64,000 nucleotides of DNA. Source: Escherichia coli (GTDB lineage: Bacteria; Pseudomonadota; Gammaproteobacteria; Enterobacterales; Enterobacteriaceae). Below are positions 17,499 to 54,071 of this stretch, piece after piece. Within the stretch, counting starts at the first letter, position 1, and every line of letters starts with the position of its first letter. The translations under genes and the position numbers were made by a program. The DNA lies in the NCBI RefSeq assembly GCF_044324785.1, contig NZ_CP172127.1. The stretch is one strand, 5' to 3'. Below the pieces are notes generated by a model that was not told the DNA's origin, ran no database searches, and was given only the letters and a program-made list of their open reading frames with translations.

Positions 17499-17534
17499 GA
17501 CGCGGCATCCGGCTATTGCATGTCTGCGGAAACG

Positions 17535-18425
17535 TTATGCGTCATAGGTTTTTTTTAACGTTTCCATCAACGCCTGCGCCGCAGTAGAAAGCTTATGGTG
17601 TGACGAACGCAGTACGCCTACTCGTCGCTCAATCACTGGATTATCCAGTTCCAGACACACTGCGCCCAGTTCGCTCATCTGCCTGCGGCACAGCGCAGGC
17701 ACAGCGCTTCCTCCCAAACCGTTTGCCACCAGCCGCCCAACCGTAACCAGTTGATGGCTTTCCAGCGCCACTTCCAGTTGCGTTCCACTTTGTGCCAACT
17801 GCTCCTCCAGCATCAACCTGACGGCTGACGGTCGCTGGAGGGTGATAAAATCGAGCGTCAGCAAATCCCGCCAACTCACGCGTTGCCGATTTGCCAGTCG
17901 TGAATCGGCTGGAACAATAGCGACAAACCGATCCACGCCCAGTGGGGTAAAATGCACATGGCCGCAATAGTCAGGTTCAAAGGCAATACCCATCTCCACA
18001 CGCCCTTCGCTCACCATTTCGATCACCTGCTCATTCACCACATCGTGCACGGTGACATTAATCCCTGAATAACAATCGCGGAAGGTTTTCAGCACCGGAG
18101 GCAGAACGTTGGCTGCAAATGACGGCATCGCTGCCACCGAGACTTTGCCCCGCCTGAGCGTGAATCGCTGACGCATGGCCTCCTCAGTGTTATCCCAGTC
18201 AGCCAGCAAAGGCCGTGCCATCGACAATAGCGTTTCCCCCTCCTGGGTTAATGTCACTTTTCGCGTAGTACGCAGCAGTAAAGCGCCCCCTAAGGCATCT
18301 TCCAGTCCTTTAATGGCAAGACTTAGCGCAGGCTGCGACATATTCAGCCGTTCACTGGCATGGGCAAAGTTCAGAGTGTGAGCTACCGCTAAAAACGCGC
18401 GTAACTGTTTGATGCTCATTTTCAT
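17535..18425 (-). CDS. LysR-family transcriptional regulator, 296 aa, divergent from the ketone-body operon
   Basis: N-terminal HTH (MKMSIKQLRAFLAVAHTLNFAHASERLNMSQPALSLAIKGLE) plus LysR substrate-binding fold; divergently oriented 140 bp from the next operon. Confidence 0.85.
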   Translation of the reverse strand: MKMSIKQLRAFLAVAHTLNFAHASERLNMSQPALSLAIKGLEDALGGALLLRTTRKVTLTQEGETLLSMARPLLADWDNTEEAMRQRFTLRRGKVSVAAMPSFAANVLPPVLKTFRDCYSGINVTVHDVVNEQVIEMVSEGRVEMGIAFEPDYCGHVHFTPLGVDRFVAIVPADSRLANRQRVSWRDLLTLDFITLQRPSAVRLMLEEQLAQSGTQLEVALESHQLVTVGRLVANGLGGSAVPALCRRQMSELGAVCLELDNPVIERRVGVLRSSHHKLSTAAQALMETLKKTYDA

Positions 18426-18566
18426 CTGGCACTCCGTTAACCTACTGAATACATTTAATTAACATTATATTGATAAATAATACAAATGAATGAGTCACAA
18501 ATTTAAAATTAACAAATCATTTTTTGCCCTTAATGATGTTGAAAAGGACAACTGGAGGGCAACTGT

Positions 18567-19274
18567 ATGGCTGGGTTGGATAAACGGGTCGCTACGTATC
18601 ACGAGGCGCTTGAAGGACTTACCAATGAGATGACGATTCTGGCAGGAGGTTTTGGCCTGTGCGGCATCCCGGAGAATCTGATTGCTGAAGTTCGCCACCG
18701 TGGAGTAACCGGATTAACGGTGGTTTCCAATAACTGTGGCGTAGATGGTTTTGGACTGGGTGTACTACTGGAAAGCCGACAGATCCGTAAAGTCGTCGCT
18801 TCTTATGTTGGCGAGAATGCTTTGTTTGAAAAACAGGTGCTTAACGGCGAACTGGAGGCGATTCTCACACCACAAGGAACCCTGGCAGAACAACTGCGCG
18901 CAGGCGGCGCGGGTATCCCGGCGTTCTTTACTGCCACCGGTTACGGTACTCCCGTTGCCGAAGGGAAAGAAGTCCGCGAATTCAACGGTCGCCCGTACAT
19001 CATGGAACAGGCTATCACCGGTGATTTTGCCCTGGTCAAAGGCTGGAAAGCCGACTGGTACGGCAACGTGATTTATCGTCATACCGCGCAAAACTTCAAC
19101 CCACTGATGGCGGCTGCCGGAAAAATCACCGTGGTGGAAGTGGAAGAAATCGTGCCACCTGGTGAACTTGATCCTGCCGCTATCCATACCCCGGGGATTT
19201 TTGTTAATCGCGTCATTCAGGGGCAATTTGAAAAACGCATTGAACAACGCACCCTTAGCCGCAAAGGAGCCTGA
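18567..19274 (+). CDS. 3-oxoacid CoA-transferase subunit A, 235 aa
   Basis: Conserved [12 protein letters not shown] motif of CoA-transferase family I alpha subunits. Confidence 0.85.
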
Positions 19275-19276
19275 CC

Positions 19277-19933
19277 ATGTTAACCCGTGAACAAATGGCG
19301 ATGCGAGTCGCCCGCGAATTGCGCGATGGCTATTACGTCAATCTCGGCATTGGTATCCCGACCCTGGTGGCAAACTACATTCCTGACGGGATGGATGTGA
19401 TGTTGCAGTCAGAAAACGGTTTGCTGGGAATGGGCGCATTTCCTACGGAAGACGAACTGGACGCCGACATGATTAATGCCGGTAAACAAACCGTTACCGC
19501 GCGGAAAGGCGCGGCAATTTTCGATTCGGCGCAATCATTCGCCATGATCCGTGGCGGTCATGTGGATCTGACTGTACTTGGCGCATTTGAAGTGGATGTG
19601 AATGGCAACATTGCCTCATGGATGATCCCCGGCAAGATGGTTAAAGGCATGGGCGGTGCCATGGATCTGGTTGCCGGTGCCGAGAATATTATTGTGGTAA
19701 TGACCCACGCCTCCAAATCCGGCGAATCCAAACTGCTTCCTGACTGTACCCTTCCATTGACCGGCGCCGGATGCATCAAACGCGTCTTAACCGACCTTGC
19801 TCTGCTGGAAATTGCTGACGGAGCTTTCATTCTGCGCGAGCGCGCGCCGGGAATCAGCGTTGCGGAAATCATCGCCAAAACCGCCGGTAAGTTGTTTGTG
19901 CCGGAACATGTCCCGGAAATGCAATTCAACTGA
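19277..19933 (+). CDS. 3-oxoacid CoA-transferase subunit B, 218 aa
   Basis: Beta-subunit signature with catalytic glutamate context (LQSENGLLGMG); starts 3 bp after the subunit A stop. Confidence 0.85.
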   Translation: MLTREQMAMRVARELRDGYYVNLGIGIPTLVANYIPDGMDVMLQSENGLLGMGAFPTEDELDADMINAGKQTVTARKGAAIFDSAQSFAMIRGGHVDLTVLGAFEVDVNGNIASWMIPGKMVKGMGGAMDLVAGAENIIVVMTHASKSGESKLLPDCTLPLTGAGCIKRVLTDLALLEIADGAFILRERAPGISVAEIIAKTAGKLFVPEHVPEMQFN

Positions 19934-19942
19934 GGAATCACC

Positions 19943-21148
19943 ATGCAGGACGTTGTTATTGTTGCCGCTACGCGCACACCGATTGGCTGTTTTCATGGCG
20001 CTCTCGCCTCACTTTCTGCGGTTGATCTCGGCGCTGCCACCATCCGTTCATTGCTGGAGAAAACAGCACTTGCAGCAGAACAGATCGACGAAGTGATTTT
20101 TGGTCAGGTCCTGACTGCCGGAAGCGGACAAAATCCGGCACGGCAATCGGCGCTCAAAGCCGGGTTAAGCCACGATACACCCGCCGTTACCATCAACCTG
20201 GTATGTGGTTCCGGTCTGAAAGCAGTACACCAGGCCGTACAGGCGATCCGTTGCGGTGATGCACAGATAATTATCGCAGGTGGCCAGGAAAGCATGAGTA
20301 ACGCGCCCTATTTTATTGATGGCGCACGGGCAGGTTTACGCCTCGGGCATACCAGCATGAAAGACAGCGTGGTGCATGACGGACTATGGGACGCTTTCAA
20401 TGATTACCACATGGGCATTACTGCAGAAAACCTGGCGCAAAAATATGCCATCAGTCGCGAGCGACAGGACACATTCGCGCTACGTTCTCAGCAAAAAGCC
20501 GCTGCCGCAATGGAAGCCGGGCGCTTTGCAGACGAAATTACTCCGGTCAGCGTACCACAAGGTAAAAAACCACCACGCAGGGTAAATACCGACGAACAAC
20601 CACGTTCCGGGACGCAACTGGAAAAACTAGCACAACTGAAACCGGCCTTTCTTCCGGGGGCGGGAAGCGTCACCGCAGGAAATGCTTCTTCCATCAATGA
20701 TGGTGCCGCCGCAGTCATGTTAATGCGCGCCAGCAAAGCTGCCGAACTTGGCCTCCCAGTGCTGGCTCGGGTGGCTGGTTATGCCGTTTCTGGCGTCGAT
20801 CCTGCCTTTATGGGCATTGGTCCGGTCGCCGCTACCCGCGAATGTCTTAAGCGTTGCGGATGGACGCTGGAAGATATTGATCTTATTGAAGCCAACGAGG
20901 CTTTCGCAGCGCAGGCGCTGGCCGTTGGCGACGAACTGAACTGGGATTGCGACAAAGTGAATGTTAACGGCGGCGCAATCGCACTTGGGCATCCTATTGG
21001 CGCTTCCGGTTGCCGCATTCTGGTCACTCTCATTTATGAAATGGCGCGACGTAATGCGCAAAAAGGGCTGGCGACGCTGTGCGTCGGTGGCGGTCAGGGC
21101 GTGGCGCTGACACTGGAAAGAACCACAGGAGAACACCATGCAAACTGA
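19943..21148 (+). CDS. Acetyl-CoA C-acetyltransferase (thiolase II), ~400 aa
   Basis: Thiolase motifs [11 protein letters not shown] (active-site Cys) and C-terminal [14 protein letters not shown]. Confidence 0.85.
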
Positions 21149-22061
21149 ACAATTTGCGGTACTGGGCGCCGGATTGATGGGCGTGGGGATTGCCACTCAT
21201 TTCGCCCGCTTTGGTCATGATATCTGGCTGTACGATACCGAGCAGAGCCGGATTGCAGAAATCCACGTAGTTGCAGGCGGAATTCTTGATGAGCTGATTA
21301 GCTGCGAACAGTTTACTGCCCCGGAAAAAGAGAATGTGCTTAAACGTCTGCACGGCACGACTTCTCTTGCAGACATCGCCGACTCGCAACTACTGATTGA
21401 GGCGATCCCGGAGCGACTTGAACTAAAACACGCATTATATACCGAGCTTGAAACGCTTATTTCTCCTGAGGCCATTGTCGCCAGCAATACCAGCGGTCTG
21501 CCGCCCGATGATCTGGCCGCGAAGATGCGCTACCCGCAACGACTGCTGATCGCCCATTTCTGGCATCCGCCGCACTTCATTCCACTTGTGGAGATTATCC
21601 CCGGCAGCGTTACCGAGCCAAAGCATTTGCACTGGCTGCAACACTTGCTTGTGTCACTGCAACTGGAAGCAGTGTTGCTGGATCGCGCTGCGCCAGGATT
21701 TGTCGGCAACCGTCTGCAATTTGCACTGTTGCGTGAAGCCCTGCATATCGTAAAAAGCGGCATCGCCAGTGCAGAAGTGGTGGATCAGGTGATGCGCGCC
21801 TCGCTTGGGCGACGTTATGCCATGGTCGGCCCGCTGGAGGCCGCCGACATGACCGGACTTTCGACGGTGCAGGATATTTGTCGCCATCTGCTCCCTGAAC
21901 TAGCGACTGGCAGCGACATGATGTCATTAGTTGCCGAAAAAGTGGAACGTGGAGACATCGGCGTACGTAGCGGTCAGGGATTTTACTGCTGGGATGAATC
22001 GCGGAAGCAGTACATCCAGCAGCGTCGGGAACATCAACTTCGCTTCGCCTTTAAAACATAA
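21138..22061 (+). CDS. 3-hydroxyacyl-CoA dehydrogenase (Hbd-like, NAD-binding), 307 aa
   Basis: N-terminal Rossmann motif [12 protein letters not shown]; overlaps the thiolase stop, suggesting translational coupling. Confidence 0.75.
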
Positions 22062-22106
22062 CTTCTCTCGCTGTACCCACTATAACAACGATATTGAGGA
22101 GTCCCG

Positions 22107-23498
22107 ATGAGTGTATTAATCGCCCTTGCCGCGCTTGGGCTGCTAATGCTGGCAGCCTATCGCGGATACAGCGTTATCCTTTTTGCCCCCATCGCAGCAT
22201 TAGGCGCTGTTCTTGTCACCGATCCGGGGGCCGTTGGCCCAGCATTTACCGGCCTGTTCATGGAAAAAATGGTCGGCTTCGTGAAATTGTACTTCCCGGT
22301 GTTTCTGCTCGGGGCCGTGTTCGGAAAACTGATTGAACTTTCAGGATTTTCTCGTTCGATTGTCGCTGCTGCAATCAACATTCTCGGCCGGCGGCATGCG
22401 ATTCCGGTGATTGTGCTGGTATGTGCATTACTCACCTATGGCGGAGTGTCGCTGTTTGTGGTGGCATTTGCCGTTTATCCGTTCGCGGCTGAATTGTTCC
22501 GCCAGAGTAATATCCCCAAACGGCTTATACCGGCAACGGTGGCCCTCGGAGCATTCTCTTTTACTATGGACGCTCTGCCCGGCACGCCACAAATTCAGAA
22601 CATTATTCCCACCAGTTTCTTTGGCACCAACGCCTGGGCCGCGCCGTGGCTGGGGCTTATTGGTTCACTGTTTATCATTGCCGTCGGGCTTATCTATCTG
22701 GAACGGCAGCGTCGTAAAGCACAGGCAAAAAATGAAAGTTACGGCACAGAGTTACTTAATGAACCTGAAACGCCGGACAACATCAATTTACCGAACCCAC
22801 TCATTGCGATTTCACCATTGATTCTGGTGGGGCTGTTGAACTTGTTGTTTACCTGGTGGATCCCTGTTTGGTACGGTGCGAGCCACCAACTGGAGTTGCC
22901 GGGACTTACTGCCCCGATTACCACAGATGTCGCCAAAATCACCGCAATCTGGGCCGTCGAAGCTGCGCTCATTGCCGGAATTTTGCTGGTAGTGATTTTT
23001 GGATATCGCAATATTCATGGAAGACTGGCAGAAGGAAGCCGTACAGCGGTAGGCGGCGCAATTCTGGCTGCGATGAACACCGCCTCAGAATATGGCTTCG
23101 GTGCGGTTATCGCCGCCCTACCCGGTTTTCTGGTGCTCTCAAAGGCGCTGGCCGCCATTCCTGATCCATTACTCAACGAAGCCATCAGCATCACCACACT
23201 TGCCGGAATTACCGGTTCAGCGTCCGGCGGGATGAGTATTGCTCTTGCGGCTATGTCCGACACTTTTATTGCCGCTGCGCACGCTGCCAATATTCCACTG
23301 GAAGTTTTTCACCGCGTGGCATCTATGGCCAGTGGCGGCATGGATACATTGCCCCATAACGGCGCTGTGATCACCCTGCTGGCAATTACTGGGCTGAGTC
23401 ACCGTCAGGCTTACGGCGGCATCTTCGCAATTACGATCATTAAAAGTCTGGCCGTGCTGTTTATCATCGGCGTGTACTACACCACCGGCATTGTCTAA
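22107..23498 (+). CDS. GntP-family permease (predicted 3-hydroxybutyrate/short-chain hydroxy-acid:H+ symporter), 463 aa
   Basis: Highly hydrophobic multi-pass protein with GntP-like architecture; embedded in the catabolic operon. Confidence 0.65.
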   Translation: MSVLIALAALGLLMLAAYRGYSVILFAPIAALGAVLVTDPGAVGPAFTGLFMEKMVGFVKLYFPVFLLGAVFGKLIELSGFSRSIVAAAINILGRRHAIPVIVLVCALLTYGGVSLFVVAFAVYPFAAELFRQSNIPKRLIPATVALGAFSFTMDALPGTPQIQNIIPTSFFGTNAWAAPWLGLIGSLFIIAVGLIYLERQRRKAQAKNESYGTELLNEPETPDNINLPNPLIAISPLILVGLLNLLFTWWIPVWYGASHQLELPGLTAPITTDVAKITAIWAVEAALIAGILLVVIFGYRNIHGRLAEGSRTAVGGAILAAMNTASEYGFGAVIAALPGFLVLSKALAAIPDPLLNEAISITTLAGITGSASGGMSIALAAMSDTFIAAAHAANIPLEVFHRVASMASGGMDTLPHNGAVITLLAITGLSHRQAYGGIFAITIIKSLAVLFIIGVYYTTGIV

Positions 23499-23509
23499 GG
23501 AAAATCATC

Positions 23510-24280
23510 ATGAATTTACAAGGTAAAACTGCGCTGGTGACGGGCTCCACCAGCGGTATCGGACTCGGTATTGCTCAGACACTGGCAAACGCTGGCGCGC
23601 AAGTGATCCTCAACGGCTTCGGTGATGTTGACGCGGCAATCAATGCGGTTTCTCGTATGGGTAAAACGCCTGGCTATCATGAGGCAGACCTCAGCGATGA
23701 ATCGCAAATTATCAACATGATGGCCTACGCACGGCGGGAATTTGGCGGTGTGGACATTCTGGTGAATAACGCAGGGATCCAGTATGTCTCCCCGGTTGAA
23801 TCTTTCCCTGTAGAAAAATGGAACGCCATTATCGCTATCAATCTCTCTTCTGTCTTTCACACCACGCGTCTGGCACTGCCAGAAATGCGCACTCGTAACT
23901 GGGGTCGGATCATTAACATTGCCTCTGTGCATGGGCTGGTAGCGTCGAAAGACAAATCAGCTTATGTTGCGGCAAAACATGGCGTGGTGGGACTCACAAA
24001 GACCATTGCTCTGGAAACTGCGCAGACGGGTATTACCTGCAACGCGCTCTGCCCTGGCTGGGTGCTGACGCCGCTGGTACAACAGCAGATTGATAAGCGC
24101 ATTGCGCAAGGCGAAGATGCGGAAAGCGCGCGTGACGCCTTACTGGCAGAAAAACAGCCTTCTCGTGAATTTGTGACTCCGCAACAACTGGGTGAACTGG
24201 CGCTGTTTCTCTGTTCGGATGCGGCAGCACAAGTGCGTGGGGTGGCGTGGAATATGGATGGCGGTTGGGTAGCGCAGTAA
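23510..24280 (+). CDS. D-3-hydroxybutyrate dehydrogenase (classical SDR), 256 aa
   Basis: SDR motifs TGSTSGIGLGIA (cofactor binding) and YVAAKHG (YxxxK); length and motifs typical of BdhA. Confidence 0.8.
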   Translation: MNLQGKTALVTGSTSGIGLGIAQTLANAGAQVILNGFGDVDAAINAVSRMGKTPGYHEADLSDESQIINMMAYARREFGGVDILVNNAGIQYVSPVESFPVEKWNAIIAINLSSVFHTTRLALPEMRTRNWGRIINIASVHGLVASKDKSAYVAAKHGVVGLTKTIALETAQTGITCNALCPGWVLTPLVQQQIDKRIAQGEDAESARDALLAEKQPSREFVTPQQLGELALFLCSDAAAQVRGVAWNMDGGWVAQ

Positions 24281-28688: not shown

Positions 28689-28973
28689 ATGAAAATGGCC
28701 AATCATCCCCGCCCGGGGGACATTATTCAGGAATCACTCGACGAACTTAATGTCAGCCTGCGCGAGTTTGCCAGAGCAATGGAAATTGCGCCCTCAACGG
28801 CAAGCCGATTGCTGACCGGAAAAGCAGCTTTGACGCCAGAAATGGCAATTAAACTTTCCGTGGTGATCGGCAGTTCGCCGCAAATGTGGCTGAATCTGCA
28901 AAACGCCTGGAGCCTGGCAGAGGCTGAAAAAACGGTGGATGTGTCGCGACTGCGCCGTCTGGTTACGCAATAA
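28689..28973 (+). CDS. yddM: XRE/HigA-like HTH DNA-binding protein, 94 aa
   Basis: HTH region ([35 protein letters not shown]); matches YddM; no intact partner toxin gene in the 145-bp upstream gap. Confidence 0.7.
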
Positions 28974-29003
28974 AAAAATGGCGCTTCTTAAAGCGCCATT
29001 TTC
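28974..29003. terminator. Bidirectional terminator between convergent yddM and fdnI
   Basis: Hairpin AATGGCGCT-TCTTA-AAGCGCCATT flanked by A-run on one side and T-run on the other. Confidence 0.55.
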
Positions 29004-29023
29004 AGCTTAAAGTTCAAAAGAGA

Positions 29024-29677
29024 TTATATCCCTTCTTCACTCTCTTTTTTCGCTTCCGCCTTCTCGATTTCACGATACCAGCGCGGATGGTGTTTCTTCG
29101 CCCAGCGACGGCTCACCTTCCCTTCGATCATCCCTTTAATCGACCCTTTCACCCAGAATGCCATATACATATGGATCAGGATGGCGTGGATCAGGATGAT
29201 ACCCGCAGCCGCGTGAATCAGCAGGCTGTAGCGGACAACCTGCATCGGGAAGTACTGCGCAAAGTACGGACGCCAGATAATCACCCCGGTCACCAACAGC
29301 ACGAAAATCATGCTCATGATCGACCAGAACATCATCTTTTGCCCGGCGTTGTACTTACCGACATCCGCCACTTTGTGCTCATTGCCTTTTAATACTTCGA
29401 CAATGTTCAACAGCCACGGAATATCTTTCTTATCCGGGATGTTGTGATGCACAAAACGCACAAACATAAACATCAGCGCGACGAAAATCGCAATGCCGAA
29501 GAACGGGTGCAAAATGCGTCCCATCTGCGGCGTACCGAAGGTTTGCGTCAGCCATTGCAGCGTCGGGAAGAAGAACGAAATCCCGGACAGCGCCACCAGG
29601 AAGAAGCAAATCACCACGGTCCAGTGACAGGCGCGATCAATAAATTTGGTGCGCACAATCATTTTCGACTTACTCAT
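29024..29677 (-). CDS. fdnI: Formate dehydrogenase-N gamma subunit (cytochrome b556), 217 aa
   Basis: Starts [21 protein letters not shown]...; multi-pass heme-b protein; start overlaps the fdnH 3' end. Confidence 0.9.
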
Positions 29678-30554
29678 GATGATCCTCCTCGTCATCGTCC
29701 ACTTCCTTATTCGGGCCAATACCGATGTAGTGGAAAATCAACCCGGCAAAAGTGGCAATAAAGCCAGCCGCTGCCAGCGGTTTCAACGCGCCTTTCCACA
29801 GGCTTACCGAGGTGTCGATCTTCGGATCTTTCGGCAGACCGTGATACAGCTCCGGCTGATCGGCATGATGCAACACGTACATAACGTGCGTACCACCGAC
29901 CCCTTCCGGGTTGTAGACGCCAGCATGTTCGTAACCACGCGCTTTCAGTTTCGCCACGCGCTGTTCCGCCAGCTCCAGCATCTCCTTCTTGGTGCCGAAG
30001 TGGATAGCCCCGGTCGGACAGGTTTTCACACAAGCCGGTTCCTGGCCGACGCTGACGCGATCGACGCAGAGCGTGCATTTATATACCCGGTTATCCTCTT
30101 TGTTGAGGCGCGGAATATTAAACGGACACCCGGCAATGCAGTAACCACAGCCGATGCAGTTTTCCGACTGGAAATCGACAATCCCGTTAGCGTACTGAAT
30201 GATTGCACCAGCAGACGGGCACGCCTTCAGGCAGCCCGGATCTTCACAGTGCATACAGCCGTCTTTACGGATCAGCCACTCCAGCTTGCCGTTCTGTTCG
30301 GTTTCGCTAAAGCGCATCACCGTCCAGGACTTGGCGCTCAGATCGGCGGGGTTATCGTAAACCCCGACGCAGTGCCCCACTTCATCACGGATGTCGTTCC
30401 ACTCCGAACACGCCACCTGACAGGCTTTACAACCGATACAGGTGGAAACGTCGATAAGTTTCGCGACTTCTGCTTTGTAATCACGCACCTGAGAAGGCGG
30501 CGTGATGGAGTTAGTTGCGGACCTTTTGATAATGTCCTGCGTTTCCATAGCCAT
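29670..30554 (-). CDS. fdnH: Formate dehydrogenase-N beta subunit (4x[4Fe-4S]), 294 aa
   Basis: Multiple CxxCxxCxxxCP ferredoxin motifs and a C-terminal transmembrane anchor. Confidence 0.92.
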
Positions 30555-30566
30555 CTGTTCGCCCCC

Positions 30567-33500
30567 TTACGCCTTCTCGATGTTTACTAAGAACGCTTTA
30601 TATTCCGGCGTTTGCGAGTTTGCATCACCGACATTAGGCGTCAGAGTGTTAGCGATATAACCTTTGCGCGCGACACCCTCAAAGCCCCAGTGGATTGGAA
30701 TACCCACCGTTTCAACCTGCTGACCGTTTACATTCAGCGGCTTCAGACGGCGCGTTACCACAGCCACCGCGCGGATAAAGCCACGCTTGCTGGATACGGT
30801 GACACGGTCGCCATTGGCGATGCCTTTCGCCGCCGCCAGCGTTTCGCTGATTTCTACAAACTGTTCCGGCTGAGCAATTGCGTTGAGCAACGCGTGCTTG
30901 GTCCAGGTGTGGAAGTGCTCGGTCAGACGATAGGTCGTACCCACATACGGGAACTGCTCTTTTTTACCCATCCGCAGCGCGTCTTGTTCATACAGACGAA
31001 CCACCGGGTTAGACACCACGTTCGGATGCAGCGGGTTAGTGCCCAGCGGCGTTTCGATTGGCTCGTAGTGTTCCGGGAACGGACCTTCCGCCATTTTGTT
31101 GATGGCAAACAGACGTCCCATCCCTTCCGGCTGCATGATAAACGGCCCGGTTGGCGTACCCGGTGCGGCATTGCCGAAGTCAGGAATATCGTTACCCGTC
31201 CACTTGCTGCCGTTCCACTGGATCAGCATCCGTTTCGGATCCCACGGTTTACCGTTGATATCCGCCGAAGCACGGTTGTAGAGTACGCGACGGTTGAGCG
31301 GCCACGCCCAGGCCCATCCCAGCGTATTCCCCAGACCGGACGGGTCGGAGTTATCGCGGTTAGCCATCTGGTTGCCCTGCTCTGTCCAGCTACCGGTGTA
31401 TATCCAGCAAGACGATGCGGTTGTACCGTCATCACGCAGATGCGCAAAGCTACTCAGCAACTGACCTTTCTTCGCAATCAGCACGCCATTAGCATCATAG
31501 AGATCTTCCAGCGCATAGCCGTTATTCTCTTTCGCCACTTCGTCAGACTGCGGTTCGTGCGGCTGCTTGTAGTTCCAGCTCATCTTCATCAGCGGTTCTA
31601 CGCCTTTACCACCTTCGGCCTGGTACAGCTCGCGCAGATGATGGTAGATACCCGCCAGAATTTCGCCGTCGTTACGCGCTTCGCCCGGCGCGTCCTGACC
31701 TTTCCAGTGCCACTGCAACCAGCGACCGGAGTTAGCAATAGAACCATCTTCTTCAGCAAAGCAGGTCGAAGGCAGACGGAATACTTCAGTCTGAATAGAC
31801 GCCGGATCGACATCGTTCGACTCGCCGTGGTTCTGCCAGAAGGTAGAAGTTTCAGTCACCAGCGGATCGATAACCACCATGTACTTCAGCTTGCTCAGGC
31901 AGCTAACCACTTTGTTTTTGTCCGGGAAGGACGCAACCGGGTTAAAGCCCTGGCAGAAATAACCGGTGACTTTGCCTTCATCCATCATGTTGAAATACTT
32001 GATGACGTCGTAGGTCTGGTCCCACTTAGGCAGCCAGTCGTAGCCCCAGTTGTTCTCTTTCTGCGCGGCATCGCCGTAGAAAGATTTCATCAGGCTAACG
32101 AAGAACTTCGGATAGTTGCTCCAGTAGTTCACCTGATCAGCCAGCGTCGCTTTCGGCGTGTTCGCTTCCAGATACGACTGCAAATCAACCTGTTTTTCTG
32201 ACGGCAGCGTCAGATAACCCGGCAGGCTGGTAGAGAGCAGGCCTAAGTCGGTCAGGCCCTGAATGTTGGAGTGACCACGCAATGCGTTCACACCGCCACC
32301 GGCCATACCCATGTTACCGAGCAGTAACTGGATCATCGCCATAGTACGGATGTTCTGCGCACCCACGGTGTGCTGCGTCCAGCCCAGCGCGTACAGGAAG
32401 GTGGTTGTGCGATCCGGTGCGCTGGTGGAGGCCAGCACTTCACACACTTTCAGGAAGTCGGCTTTTGGCGTACCACAGATGTTTTCTACTACGTCTGGCG
32501 TGTAGCGGGAAACGTGCGCTTTCAGCAGGTTCCACACACAGCGCGGATGAGTCAGCGTGTCATCGCGTTTCGCATAGCCGTTTTCATCGAACTGATAGTT
32601 CCAGGACGATTTATCGTACTGGCGTTTTTCAGCGTCATAACCGCTGAACAGGCCATCTTCGAAAGCAAAATCATCACGCACCAGCAGGCTGGCGTTAGTG
32701 TAATGCTTAACGTATTCGGCGTTGATTTTGTTGTTTTCGATCAGGTAGCGCAAAACGCCAGACAGGAACGTAATGTCCGTACCGGAACGAATAGGTGCGT
32801 AAATATCCGCCACAGAAGCGGTACGCGTAAAACGGGGATCGACAACGATCAAGGTTGCATCGTTGTTGTTTTTCGCTTCCATCGCCCAGCGGAAACCGAC
32901 GGGATGCGCTTCAGCAGCATTACCGCCCATCACCATTACGACGTTAGCGTTTTTGATATCCACCCAGTGGTTGGTCATCGCACCGCGACCAAATGTTGGA
33001 GCAAGACTTGCTACCGTTGGTCCGTGTCAGACGCGCGCCTGGTTGTCTACCGCCAGCATACCGAGGGAGCGGGCAAATTTTTGAGTCAGCATCCCGGTTT
33101 CGTTGCTGGCACCGGAGGCACACAGCATACCGGTAGAAAGCCAACGGTTTACCGTTACGCCCTGCTCGTTCTTTTCAATAAAGTTAGCGTCACGGTCAGC
33201 TTTCATCAGCTTCGCAATACGGGAGAATGCTTCTTCCCAGCTAATGCGCTGCCATTTGTCAGAACCTGGCGCACGATATTCCGGGTAGCGCAGACGGTTT
33301 TCGCTGTTGACGTAATCCAGCAAACCGGCCCCTTTCGGGCACAGCGCACCACGGCTTACCGGATGATCCGGGTCACCTTCAATGTGATAAATTGCTTCTC
33401 TGGCGTTTTTCGCGCCATCACCCAGGCTATACATCAATAGCCCGCAACCTACGGAACAGTATGTGCAGGTGTTACGGATCTCTTTAGCGCGTAATAATTT

Positions 33501-33614
33501 GTAGTTTCGCGCCTGAGCCAGTGCTTGCTTTGGGGCAAAGCCCAATGCCGCTACTGTTGTTCCAGCCATACCGCCCGCGCAGATTTTAAAAAATTGTCTG
33601 CGACTGACGTCCAT
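30567..33614 (-). CDS. fdnG: Formate dehydrogenase-N alpha subunit, selenoprotein, 1015 aa with an in-frame UGA (Sec) at 33027..33029
   Basis: Two track ORFs (33027..33614 and 30567..32978) are in the same frame, separated only by one TGA; N-terminal Tat signal MDVSRRQFFKICAGG; molybdopterin oxidoreductase motifs. Confidence 0.93.
32985..33026 (-). other. Predicted SECIS element directing Sec insertion at the fdnG UGA
   Basis: Bacterial SECIS hairpins lie immediately 3' of the UGA; the mRNA here (CACGGACCAACGGUAGCAAGUCUUGCUCCAACAUUUGG) has self-complementary segments; structure not computed. Confidence 0.4.
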
Positions 33615-51997: not shown

Positions 51998-52243
51998 TTG
52001 AGAGTTACCGGTTTTGATATGGGTGTCGAATCCTTATACAAAACACGGGTAACTCTCATGCTTCATACTACCAATCCCGTTATCAAACACAAAGCCAGTT
52101 TGCTCAATCTGGCTGAAGAACTCAGCAACGTATCAAAAGCCTGTAAAATCATGGGCGTTTCGCGTGATACGTTTTATCGTTACCGCGAACTGGCCGATGA
52201 AGGCAGGGAAAGATTACGAAAGCCCGCTCCCTGCAAGGACTGA
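51998..52243 (+). pseudogene. Transposase N-terminal HTH fragment (IS remnant), truncated at the H-repeat element
   Basis: Short ORF with a transposase-like HTH (KACKIMGVSRDTFYRYRELADEG) ending where the H-repeat gene ends; no catalytic domain follows. Confidence 0.4.
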
Positions 52244-53350
52244 CGCCAGGTAGTTTCTGTCCATGGCTGCTTTTCGCATCTTACGTCTTAACCCTGCCTT
52301 GAATACCTTATCATTCGTTAAAATATTAATAGCGATGTGCCGTATCCCTGAAAATAATTCTGCTGCATTTCCTCTTCTTATTTTGCAGTCGTCTTCATTC
52401 ATTACCACGTCCAGACGCCAGTGCAGCTTATTCTCCACGTGCCAGTGATTTCGGATCGCTGTGGCGAACTTCTCAGCGGTTAAATCAGCAGAACTGATGT
52501 AATATCTGACCGTCATTTCTGGCTCTTTCTTTTGTTCTGCTATTATGGACCGAAAGGAGACTGCCACGCATAATTTCTTCAGTCCTTTCCATTCAAACGT
52601 GAAATCAATAAGTTCATCAGGGACATCGCAAACAATATGAAGACGGATTTCTTCTCTGCCTTGACTTTTTTCACTAATTGCGTAACTGTCATGCTCTGGA
52701 TTATTTAATTCTTTCAGTGGGAATTTTTCCTCAAAGGCTTTATTAAGCCGCCCCTGATTTCCTTTTACAGCGAATAAATAATCACCGCCCTGTTTTTGTA
52801 TCTTCTCTGCGATATCTTTCTGGCAACCCATCGCATCAGTTGTGATAATTTTTCCTTTAATATCCAGCATGTTAAGAAGTTCAGGGATAGCTGTGATCTC
52901 ATTGGATTTCTTATCCGTCCTGATCTGTCCGATGACAAGACTGTGCATTGTTGAGAACGCACTAATGACATGAATCGCTCCCCTGCGGCGACTCTTGTCA
53001 TAAGAATGCCGGAGCGTTTTTCCATCAATTGCAATAACGTCTTTATCATCTGAAGAATGGCAGTCACGCATCCCGTTAATAAAGCACTCGTGAAATTTTA
53101 CAGGACTGATACAGGATACAACTCTGGCAATGGTATCGTGAACAGGAATACCATTTTCAAAATCACCATATTGCTTCAAAAAATCGAGATGTGTTTCCCC
53201 AAAATCCTCTATATCTTCCCAGCATTCTGCACCAGAAATAACGGCACAAATAGTCAACAGTAGAATATCCGACAATTTATGTTCCACTTTCTAGGCTTGT
53301 CTGTAATCGGGGATAATAGAAATATGTTCCATCAATTTTTTCAGTTCCAT
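52214..53350 (-). pseudogene. H-repeat-associated (ISAs1-family) transposase gene with an in-frame amber codon at codon 20
   Basis: Track ORF 52214..53287 matches the YhhI/YdcC-type H-rpt protein from [21 protein letters not shown]...; the in-frame sequence upstream reads [29 protein letters not shown] (ATG at 53348..53350, TAG at 53291..53293, where intact homologs have TGG). Confidence 0.75.
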
Positions 53351-53630
53351 TTTGTTCTCCTTAATTATGTAAGGAGTATTTGATCATGTATACGCAATAA
53401 AAAACAGCTTTAGGTAATAAGGAATATCTCAATTTTTAAACATAAAATGCGAATTATTTAGTACAAAAAGTGAACTTCTGATGATCTTTCCCTGCCCATT
53501 GGGTTCATTAAGATCAAGAATAATGGGAATATGCTCAAGAAGACTTTGAATGTTCACCAGACGTCCTTTTCTAATATATTTAATTATTTGGCGATTAAAT
53601 TTTAATCAAATCAACAAGGTAAAACCAAGA

Positions 53631-53660
53631 TTAAAGTTGTGATGATAATCACAACTTTAA
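53631..53660. repeat. Perfect 13-bp-arm inverted repeat (TTAAAGTTGTGAT-GATA-ATCACAACTTTAA)
   Basis: Perfect palindrome in the AT-rich spacer between the H-repeat element and the rhs-associated immunity ORF. Confidence 0.5.
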
Positions 53661-53696
53661 TGATCTTCCCCTGATTCCTCCAGTCCTTTTATTTGG

Positions 53697-54071
53697 TTAC
53701 TCTAATGGTTTTATTAATTGTAAATTTTTAAATGTCATGCTTAATAAGCCATCAGAAAAATAAAGAAAAAATTTATATATCCTTTTGTTTTTTAATTTCT
53801 TTATATACCCATTACTTATATTACCTGACTTGTGATTATCGATTAACTCAGCAGAATCCATAGCGAACACTAAATCATCTACATCAGAAAATTCAACTAT
53901 CATTTTTTCCCTAATGTTCTCATTTTTATAAATGTCAATAAATAACGTCATGTTAAAATGAGATTCTTTGAATGTCGTTTTTACTTCTAACAAAACCCCA
54001 TCATGCCAGTCAATTGAACTCACAATGTCAAAATCGCTCATTATATAATCTCCATTATCCGTTTTAATCAT
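53697..54071 (-). CDS. Candidate immunity protein for the downstream Rhs C-terminal domain, ~124 aa
   Basis: Small low-GC ORF starting at or just after the stop of the rhs C-terminal domain; no signal peptide; alternative start at 54041. Confidence 0.55.

Follow-up and report, generated by a model that had tools for sequence, protein, structure and literature searches.

The UGA at codon 196 of fdnG in the window, the 64-kb stretch of Escherichia coli DNA analysed here, is almost certainly a selenocysteine recoding site with a bacterial SECIS element on its 3' side, and not a stop, which leaves the gene intact. A preliminary description of the sequence had read it as a selenocysteine site rather than a sign of a pseudogene, and the conserved TGA, the intact downstream frame and the score of the SECIS_3 covariance model back that reading. 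The feature is an ordinary one, already described, and biologically it brings no novelty: that a UGA encodes selenocysteine in fdnG has been textbook material since 1991, and its SECIS element is a known, curated Rfam family. The practical value lies in annotation, where two open reading frames (ORFs) should be merged into one coding sequence with a translation exception and residue 196 entered as selenocysteine. Coordinates are collected in Table 1.

Table 1 Features of the fdnG recoding site and its operon in the window.
Feature	Position	Strand	Basis or detail
fdnG, complete CDS, formate dehydrogenase-N alpha subunit	30567..33614	-	1015 aa + stop, read through UGA196
Upstream ORF	33614..33027	-	195 aa + TGA stop; ORF listing
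Downstream ORF	32978..30567	-	803 aa, begins at ATG; ORF listing
UGA codon 196, almost certainly decoded as selenocysteine; presumed Mo-ligand position	33027..33029	-	Sequence and homologous-site codons
ATG of Met213 (GAMTNHW motif)	32976..32978	-	First start codon 3' of UGA; ORF listing
SECIS element, full Rfam SECIS_3 (RF01989) match	32974..33032	-	84.3 bits; model positions 1-59 of 59
Apical (minimal) SECIS hairpin, GGUAGCAAGUCUUGCUCC	32998..33015	-	nt 15-32 counted from U of UGA
Block with extreme conservation of nucleotides and synonymous sites, holding UGA and SECIS	32962..33032	-	71 nt; fdnG/fdoG identity run
fdnH, Fe-S beta subunit	29670..30554	-	294 aa; TIGR01582, 482.1 bits (cut-off 334.7); fdnH in relatives' annotation
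fdnI, cytochrome b gamma subunit	29024..29677	-	217 aa; NF007558, 486.9 bits (cut-off 339)

A single in-frame UGA interrupts fdnG

Read directly from the sequence, a TGA at 33029..33027 on the minus strand splits fdnG into two ORFs, within the codons ...GCG CGC GUC UGA CAC GGA CCA... and the residues ...NQARV-U-HGPTVASLAPTFGR. The gap between the ORFs (33026-32978) is 48 nt, or 16 whole codons, and both ORFs therefore lie in one frame. Translation of 33614..30567 gives 1016 codons, with the TGA at codon 196 as the sole internal stop, a TAA at the end and 819 codons 3' of the UGA free of any further stop. The preliminary description had claimed just this arrangement, and held that it would fall if the frames differed or the stop were not TGA; the ORF listing and the translation agree that the frame is the same and the stop is TGA. 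The span that it gave (32976-33030) needs correcting, as the Met213 ATG ends at 32976 and the RNA element does not. Because no start codon lies between the UGA and that ATG, ORF finders begin a false 803-aa 'downstream gene' there.

The UGA is conserved far beyond this strain. K-12 and KE55 share the TGA, as do essentially all E. coli, with at least 99% identity over the surrounding 121 nt in 5406 E. coli records. Across many phyla, the homologous codon is TGA in 114 of 117 sequences, TGT in two and TGC in one, with no other codon. The only alternative to UGA over the 117 sites is thus Cys, as is characteristic of selenoproteins. This pattern argues that the TGA is no chance stop. Since three homologues carry Cys at the UGA position, a Cys enzyme is viable. 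Of these Cys homologues, only three in our sample and hence too small a set for a contrast with Sec homologues over hairpin loss, one (L013) is clearly without the hairpin described below, and another (L023) still folds a GC-rich stem.

A bacterial SECIS hairpin follows the UGA

Scanning the whole 64 kb against Rfam returned one hit at the gathering threshold, the SECIS_3 match at the UGA (84.3 bits, E=1.3e-20; gathering score 63). The UGA occupies model positions 4-6, and the element lies inside the coding region, with the frame verified. The related model SECIS_2 reached only 28.8 bits on the window (gathering 70). In E. coli-type elements, the UGA is followed after 11 nt by the minimal hairpin, in which U17 and G23/U24 are tied to SelB binding (PMC8659212). 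We found the same spacing here, with the bulged U17 at 33013, the loop bases G23 at 33007 and U24 at 33006, and G15 at 33015; U17, G23 and U24 hold the same positions as in K-12 fdhF. The hairpin also agrees throughout with the general bSECIS model, which calls for an apical loop of 3-9 nt with G in the first two loop positions, an upper stem of 4-16 bp, a UGA-to-loop distance of 16-37 nt and a minimum free energy (MFE) of -7.5 kcal/mol or lower (PMC13188914 Fig. 2). Its loop comprises either GUC (3 nt) or AGUCU (5 nt), making G23 the first or second loop base, its upper stem has 7 bp and one bulge, and the loop lies 18-19 nt from the UGA. The MFE runs from -13.8 kcal/mol (nt 4-47) to -17.4 (57 nt), the 18-nt hairpin alone accounting for -4.5.

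A hairpin directly 3' of the UGA, as the preliminary description proposed, is thus supported by the SECIS_3 score, the published spacing, the determinants U17, G23 and U24, and covariation. The RNA folding that it called for does yield a structure, but one whose stability is ordinary for its composition: the 57-nt MFE has z = -1.06, and equal or better folding occurs in 36 of 200 shuffles. With z at only -1.06, we do not use thermodynamic stability as an argument for the element; its support comes from the covariance model and the comparative data.

Alignment with fdoG and fdhF had also been suggested, and both comparisons bear the element out. From codon 195, K-12 fdnG (b1474) has the same 60 nt as the window, leaving the element without any difference, and K-12 fdoG carries them too; codon number, frame, operon and neighbours in K-12 fdnG are all as in the window. 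The apical hairpin plan is common to fdhF (formate dehydrogenase-H), the experimentally dissected SECIS prototype. The two share GUC UGA CAC GG.CC, G15-G16 pairing with CC, the bulged U17, an apical loop with G23/U24 and a GC core stem. They differ in the lower stem sequences and in the apex, where the minimal hairpin of fdhF has 17 nt (15-31) and a GGUC loop, whereas that of the window has 18 nt (15-32) and the loop A-GUC-U, to be read as 5 nt or as 3 nt closed by A22-U26. Selenocysteine is encoded by codon 140 of a 715-aa cytoplasmic enzyme in fdhF, as against codon 196 in fdnG.

Covariation supports the apical helix

We measured covariation in 43 distinct FdnG/FdoG-type (HGP/HAP-class) sequences. 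The apical helix is 98% paired across them, whereas slide controls reach at most 49%. Pair 21-33 is G-C in 32 sequences, A-U in 8 and G-U in 2, and at pair 24-30, 34 sequences have A-U and 8 have C-G; the compensatory changes at both pairs fall on third-codon, synonymous positions. None of 500 shuffles reached the observed pairing or covariation score, in a control that ignores relatedness, and RNAalifold independently recovers the same helix. With alignment columns counted from the G of GUC, all 43 sequences have U17 (col 20) and U24 (col 27), and at least 90% of them have G23 (col 26). The lower helix is weaker, at 86.8% paired overall and in an ambiguous register. Rfam's register of the E. 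coli lower stem contains non-canonical A-C and A-G pairs, and ViennaRNA prefers a one-nt shift; covariation gives clear backing to neither register, and we did not adopt the Rfam one. Because of this ambiguity, we claim the apical helix alone as demonstrated.

The SECIS_3 structure does not extend to all 114 UGA homologues. Selenocysteine-containing formate dehydrogenase alpha subunits of Desulfovibrio and other non-enterobacterial taxa (PDB 6sdr, 8cm4, 1h0h) are homologous (E ~1e-238) and have the UGA at the homologous position, but downstream of it, in this ...I-U-HS[A/S/P]TVA... class, the apical pairs of SECIS_3 are not maintained, with pairing of 0-76% at individual pairs. This HS[A/S/P] class, drawn from Desulfobacterota, Chloroflexi, Firmicutes and others, probably belongs to another SECIS class. 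Since it does not fit SECIS_3, its 49 distinct sequences were left out and the covariation test was limited to the HGP/HAP class.

Decoding of the UGA

A near-cognate tRNA for Trp or Cys might instead read the UGA, the hairpin merely stimulating generic read-through without Sec-tRNA(Sec) or SelB. The three homologues with Cys at this site fit such decoding, which gained no computed support. We consider it very improbable, given that the SelB determinants sit at the exact published positions, a curated SECIS model is matched, and the exclusive alternation of UGA and Cys codons is a selenocysteine signature. In addition, selAB are universal at the species level (5425/5426 E. coli genomes); the 64-kb window itself contains no tRNA, nor is there a sel gene among the syntenic annotations. 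Berg et al., cited in PMC13188914, are reported to have shown in 1991 that the fdnG UGA encodes selenocysteine.

In the mechanism that we favour, selenocysteine decoding, FdnG would be made as the catalytic subunit of the respiratory, nitrate-inducible formate dehydrogenase-N of an E. coli-type chromosome. The mRNA just 3' of the UGA would fold into the bacterial SECIS hairpin, the apical part of which (nt 15-32) would serve as the docking site for elongation factor SelB bearing Sec-tRNA(Sec) plus GTP. On bringing the UGA into the A site, the ribosome would unwind the lower stem, and the tethered SelB would hand over Sec-tRNA(Sec), competing with release factor 2 (RF2). Selenocysteine would then become residue 196, the molybdenum ligand, and translation would continue to give a single 1015-aa Tat-exported protein. 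We infer SelB binding, RF2 competition and Mo ligation by Sec196 from established knowledge. For SelB binding and the need for it in UGA decoding, the published basis is the K-12 elements (PMC8659212, PMC13188914).

The frame is continuous across the UGA

Both parts of the gene match one protein family. The upstream part covers positions 1-194 of the equivalog model TIGR01553 (279.5 bits), and the downstream part alone covers positions 196-1009 (1315.8 bits; cut-off 814.2), a colinear coverage across the UGA that identifies the protein as formate dehydrogenase-N alpha. The Pfam Molybdopterin domain (PF00384) is likewise divided by the TGA and continuous across it. The N-terminus, MDVSRRQFFK, carries a twin-arginine signal, and residues 197-1015 of PDB 1kqf_A are matched at E=0. 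Residue 196 of 1KQF is, we take it, a selenocysteine that coordinates molybdenum. Codon differences from K-12 number 7 synonymous and 0 nonsynonymous upstream of the UGA, and 56 synonymous and 5 nonsynonymous downstream; these counts indicate purifying selection on both sides, strong downstream.

Were the TGA a true nonsense mutation, fdnG would be a truncated pseudogene yielding only a 195-aa fragment. ORF finders do split the gene in this way, and the exact 195-aa and 803-aa fragments are on record as separate proteins, each on at least 1000 contigs. Yet the TGA is shared by nearly all E. coli and by almost every cross-phylum homologue, the stop-free downstream codons show the substitution pattern just given, and the SECIS score lies far above the Rfam threshold, making a nonsense mutation extremely improbable. 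No better prospects attach to a split gene, in which a 195-aa Fe-S domain protein would be followed by an 803-aa catalytic protein re-initiated at ATG 32978. There is indeed an in-frame ATG 16 codons past the stop, but its Met belongs to the conserved GAMTNHW motif, and the 16 intervening codons (HGPTVASLAPTFGRGA) are kept in frame across taxa. Continuity of the Molybdopterin domain and of TIGR01553 across the TGA also speaks against two proteins, as does the solved FdnG chain, a single 1015-residue polypeptide.

The gene is fdnG

Identity to K-12, synteny and the FdnI gamma-model score establish that the gene is fdnG. The read-through protein matches K-12 FdnG at 1011/1015 aa (97.7% nt). The gene as a whole differs from that of K-12 at 70/3048 nt and 5 aa, the latter at positions 342, 352, 366, 666 and 933; all are outside the element. 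Neighbours are fdnH, fdnI, yddM, adhP and yddG, a synteny specific to fdn, and fdnG is found in 5425/5426 E. coli genomes. Among the 5426 complete genomes, the best identity is 98.7-99.0%. On NF007558 ('formate dehydrogenase-N subunit gamma'), FdnI reaches 486.9 bits, as against 268.4 on the other gamma model, NF007924. A promoter and terminator scan of 28900..33900 did not exceed the hit frequency of shuffles, and the UGA site had no hit.

Over the 60-71 nt around the UGA, fdnG shows no difference from its paralogue fdoG (formate dehydrogenase-O), where selenocysteine is likewise codon 196, and the SECIS element alone is therefore not enough to distinguish them. There is nonetheless next to no chance that the gene is fdoG: K-12 fdoG reaches only 74.7% nt identity and 782/1016 aa and sits in another operon (fdoGHI-fdhE, beside fdhD), whereas the window has the fdn neighbours, not fdhD or fdhE, and its FdnI is best matched by the Fdh-N gamma model.

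A conserved block extends past the hairpin

Synonymous change is locally suppressed around the fdnG recoding site. The longest run of perfect identity between fdnG of the window and K-12 fdoG is 71 nt and includes the UGA and the SECIS element; the next longest is 35 nt. Within the run, synonymous codons are identical at 20/20 positions, against a background of 58%. Across 20 Enterobacterales relatives, third-position identity is 0.90-1.00 over codons 195-217 and mostly 0.05-0.8 in the flanks. The block extends ~20 nt 3' of the hairpin end, and several enterobacterial genera have it in identical form.

The nearly frozen synonymous sites of codons 195-217 raise the possibility, in our view an unlikely one, that the functional RNA element exceeds the canonical SECIS hairpin. 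The block may mark an added, so far undescribed constraint, such as contact or spacing at the ribosomal mRNA entry site, protection of the SECIS from misfolding, or a regulatory interaction. Alternatively, optimal-codon preference together with gene conversion between the paralogues could account for the ~20-nt 3' extension without any further function. That gene conversion by itself produced the identity of fdnG and fdoG can be rejected, because one 66-mer is common to 17 loci from several genera.

Annotation of split fdnG

Splitting of the gene is still a common annotation error. The preliminary description had warned that automated callers mis-annotate the site as a truncation; this is true of many pipelines, as the widely recorded fragments attest, but not of RefSeq/PGAP, which annotates orthologous fdnG as a single 3048-nt CDS. 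Antisense or overlapping ORFs at 32370..33440 (+), 32863..33084 (+) and 32944..33144 (-) were without Pfam matches, and we treated them as mechanical ORFs rather than genes. Among the recorded split fragments, one bears the name sulfate transporter protein.

An in-frame UGA in a continuous fdnG reading frame

The fdnG gene of the window, encoding the alpha subunit of formate dehydrogenase-N, carries an in-frame UGA followed by a SECIS hairpin with SelB determinants at canonical positions; the hairpin is maintained among homologues, and selenocysteine (Sec) alternates with cysteine at the UGA codon. On the minus strand, the sequence around the codon reads GCG CGC GUC UGA CAC GGA CCA ACG GUA GCA AGU CUU GCU CCA ACA UUU GGU CGC GGU GCG AUG ACC (TGA at 33029..33027). 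Translation of 33614..30567 yields 1016 codons, with codon 196 as the sole internal stop. The preliminary description had placed two ORFs in one frame on either side of a single TGA, and both the ORF list and the translation bear this out with correct coordinates; the 32976 that it took as a start is the last base of the Met213 ATG that opens the second ORF. This UGA with its SECIS is an already known feature: UGA-encoded Sec in fdnG was reportedly described by Berg et al. in 1991, as cited in PMC13188914.

Features at the fdnG UGA and elsewhere in the window
Feature	Position	Strand	Basis
Upstream ORF, 195 aa, ending at the TGA	33614..33027	-	mechanical ORF list
Downstream ORF, 803 aa, beginning at the ATG 16 codons past the TGA, same frame	32978..30567	-	mechanical ORF list
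SECIS, Rfam SECIS_3 (RF01989)	32974..33032	-	59/59 model positions, 84.3 bits (gathering 63), E=1.3e-20
Lower stem of the SECIS	32984..33026	-	
Constrained codons 211-217, 3' of the hairpin	32962..32983	-	
Gene cluster between ddpF and osmC	~17514..24280		
Intact porin ORF, 366 aa	34987..36087	+	
Variable region	~52000..64000		

Structure of the SECIS element

RF01989 was the only Rfam family to reach its threshold in the whole 64-kb window. Numbering from the U of UGA, G15-G16 pair with C31-C32, U17 is bulged (33013), A18-G19-C20-A21 pair with U27-G28-C29-U30, and the loop holds G23 (33007) and U24 (33006). A review of the experimental literature takes as defining features an upper stem-loop placed 11 nt away from the UGA, a bulged U17 and an apical G23/U24, and names U17 and G23 as SelB contact sites (PMC8659212). 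Loop, stem, loop G, spacing and minimum free energy all fall within the limits of the bSECIS model (PMC13188914). That energy is nevertheless ordinary for the composition (z = -1.06), and stability is therefore not counted as evidence. The hairpin proposed in the preliminary description accordingly stands on the Rfam match and the conserved apical helix, whereas folding energy alone is unremarkable.

Known elements provided further comparison. The SECIS elements of K-12 fdnG and of its paralogue fdoG (formate dehydrogenase-O) are identical to the one in the window, a full-score SECIS_3 member. The experimentally dissected prototype, K-12 fdhF, shares the positions of U17, G23 and U24 and differs only in its minimal hairpin length (17 nt, against 18 nt in the window), with a GGUC rather than an A-GUC-U loop, and in its lower stem.

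Covariation and synonymous-site constraint

We scanned the genomes of 100,044 species with a degenerate DNA pattern for GAMTNHW, a protein motif immediately 3' of the hairpin; the pattern leaves every third-codon position free, and it recovered at least 120 loci. At the 117 usable sites among the matches listed, the codon homologous to the UGA is TGA in 114 and TGT or TGC in 3, with no other codon. Forty-three distinct FdnG/FdoG-type sequences (V/I-U-H[G/A]PTVA) aligned without gaps, and their apical helix is 98% paired. Two of its pairs covary at synonymous third-codon positions: 21-33 is G-C in 32, A-U in 8 and G-U in 2 sequences, and 24-30 is A-U in 34 and C-G in 8. Overall pairing, 91.7% as aligned, falls to at most 49% when the 3' partners are slid by 1-3 columns, and none of 500 shuffles, which ignore kinship, matches the observed pairing or covariation score. 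RNAalifold independently returns the same apical helix. The lower helix is weaker (86.8% paired), in keeping with the literature view of a dispensable stem that the ribosome must melt (PMC13188914, PMC8659212); of the two helices, we regard only the apical one as demonstrated. With the Rfam register, the lower stem of the E. coli sequence includes the non-canonical pairs A-C and A-G, and ViennaRNA prefers an all-canonical register shifted by one; covariation favours neither.

Synonymous sites also show constraint at the RNA level. The longest perfect identity between the window's fdnG and K-12 fdoG is 71 nt (33032..32962), lying exactly over the UGA and SECIS, and the next longest is 35 nt. 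Across codons 195-215, the paralogues use the same codon at 20 of 20 degenerate same-amino-acid positions, against 58% gene-wide (~2e-5 under a simple binomial). The window's 66-mer is exactly common to 17 loci among the matches listed, from Photorhabdus, Providencia, Citrobacter, Yersinia, Enterobacter and E. albertii. Across codons 195-217, a set of 20 distinct close relatives has third-position identity of 0.90-1.00, compared with mostly 0.05-0.8 elsewhere. E. coli itself keeps at least 99% identity over the 121 nt surrounding the site in 5406 records. The constraint reaches ~20 nt past the hairpin into codons 211-217 (third-position identity 0.90-1.00), both among 20 FdnG/FdoG loci of Enterobacterales and from one paralogue to the other; the synonymous positions of these codons vary in more distant relatives. 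Codon preference could account for this extension, as could a small enlargement of the functional element.

Other homologues differ. A class reading I-U-HS[A/S/P]TVA, found in Desulfobacterota, Chloroflexi, Firmicutes and other phyla, keeps UGA at the homologous codon; the sequence that follows lacks the fit to SECIS_3 apical pairs, and this class presumably carries a different SECIS class. Among the three Cys homologues sampled, one from a Dehalococcoidia MAG, whose codon for the Sec position is TGT, can still form a GC-rich hairpin where the SECIS would lie, which may be a relic, and a Shewanella homologue has no such hairpin.

Decoding of the UGA

Generic read-through of the UGA is disfavoured by the specific SelB determinants in the hairpin and by the Sec/Cys pattern. 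For Sec insertion, established E. coli knowledge (summarised in PMC13188914) suggests that SelB·GTP·Sec-tRNA(Sec) would bind the apical hairpin and that the approaching ribosome would unwind the lower stem. With the UGA in the A site, SelB would deliver Sec-tRNA(Sec) in competition with RF2, and Sec196 would become the Mo ligand of the Tat-exported enzyme. The 64-kb window contains no tRNA gene, and its syntenic annotations include no sel gene; 5425 of 5426 E. coli genomes carry selAB.

Integrity and identity of the gene

A nonsense mutation leaving a pseudogene, or a split gene re-initiating after the TGA, can be excluded for practical purposes: the TGA, the 16 intervening codons and the downstream frame are all conserved, and domain and structure matches continue across the TGA. 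The claim that the gene is intact thus holds. On NCBIfam TIGR01553 (formate dehydrogenase-N alpha), the upstream ORF covers positions 1-194 and the downstream part 196-1009 (1315.8 bits, cut-off 814.2). The TGA splits the Pfam Molybdopterin domain, and residues 197-1015 align to the same residues of PDB 1kqf_A (E=0). Codons that differ from K-12 comprise 7 synonymous with 0 nonsynonymous changes before the UGA and 56 synonymous with 5 nonsynonymous after it, an excess indicating purifying selection on both parts as protein. Antisense ORFs overlapping the site had no family matches, and a promoter and terminator consensus scan gave nothing above chance.

Sequence identity, synteny and the match of FdnI rule out fdoG. 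The read-through product, beginning MDVSRRQFFK, is identical to K-12 FdnG at 1011 of 1015 residues, against 782 of 1016 for FdoG (74.7% nucleotide identity). FdnH and FdnI are both intact, and FdnI scores 486.9 bits on the Fdh-N gamma model versus 268.4 on the other gamma model. RefSeq gives the orthologue as a single 3048-nt CDS lying between yddG and the genes fdnH, fdnI, yddM and adhP. With 4 kb spanning the site as query, fdnG-fdnH adjoining yddG was matched in 5425 of the 5426 complete E. coli genomes (best identity 99.0%).

The remark that automated callers mis-annotate the site applies to many pipelines, PGAP excepted, which gives one CDS. Public collections list the exact 195-aa and 803-aa fragments as proteins in their own right, each on at least 1000 contigs (P0001, P0002, P0005). 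Among the 195-aa entries, EFN8991448.1 bears the name 'sulfate ABC transporter substrate-binding protein'.

Elsewhere in the window

Best identity to the 5426 complete genomes is only 98.7-99.0% (4-25 kb queries), and the lineage is unrepresented there. A few E. coli plasmids carry fdnG-like copies, including the SECIS region, ~93% identical to the window (for example NZ_CP170379.1, 294 kb, at 127285..127402; about 7 other plasmid places). Window 1-25000 is covered to at least 80% in only 229 of 5425 E. coli genomes, which marks the ddpF-osmC cluster as an accessory island; it encodes a LysR regulator, both CoA-transferase subunits (A and B), a thiolase, a GntP permease and two dehydrogenases, for 3-hydroxyacyl-CoA and for 3-hydroxybutyrate. 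For 39001-64000 the best genome covers only 94%. The variable region there holds an ISAs1 transposase remnant, a T6SS VgrG gene and two RHS core-protein genes that are pseudogenes in the closest genome. The porin ORF adjoins yddG and is named ompC by PGAP in relatives; at its position K-12 has only yddL/yddK/yddJ remnants.
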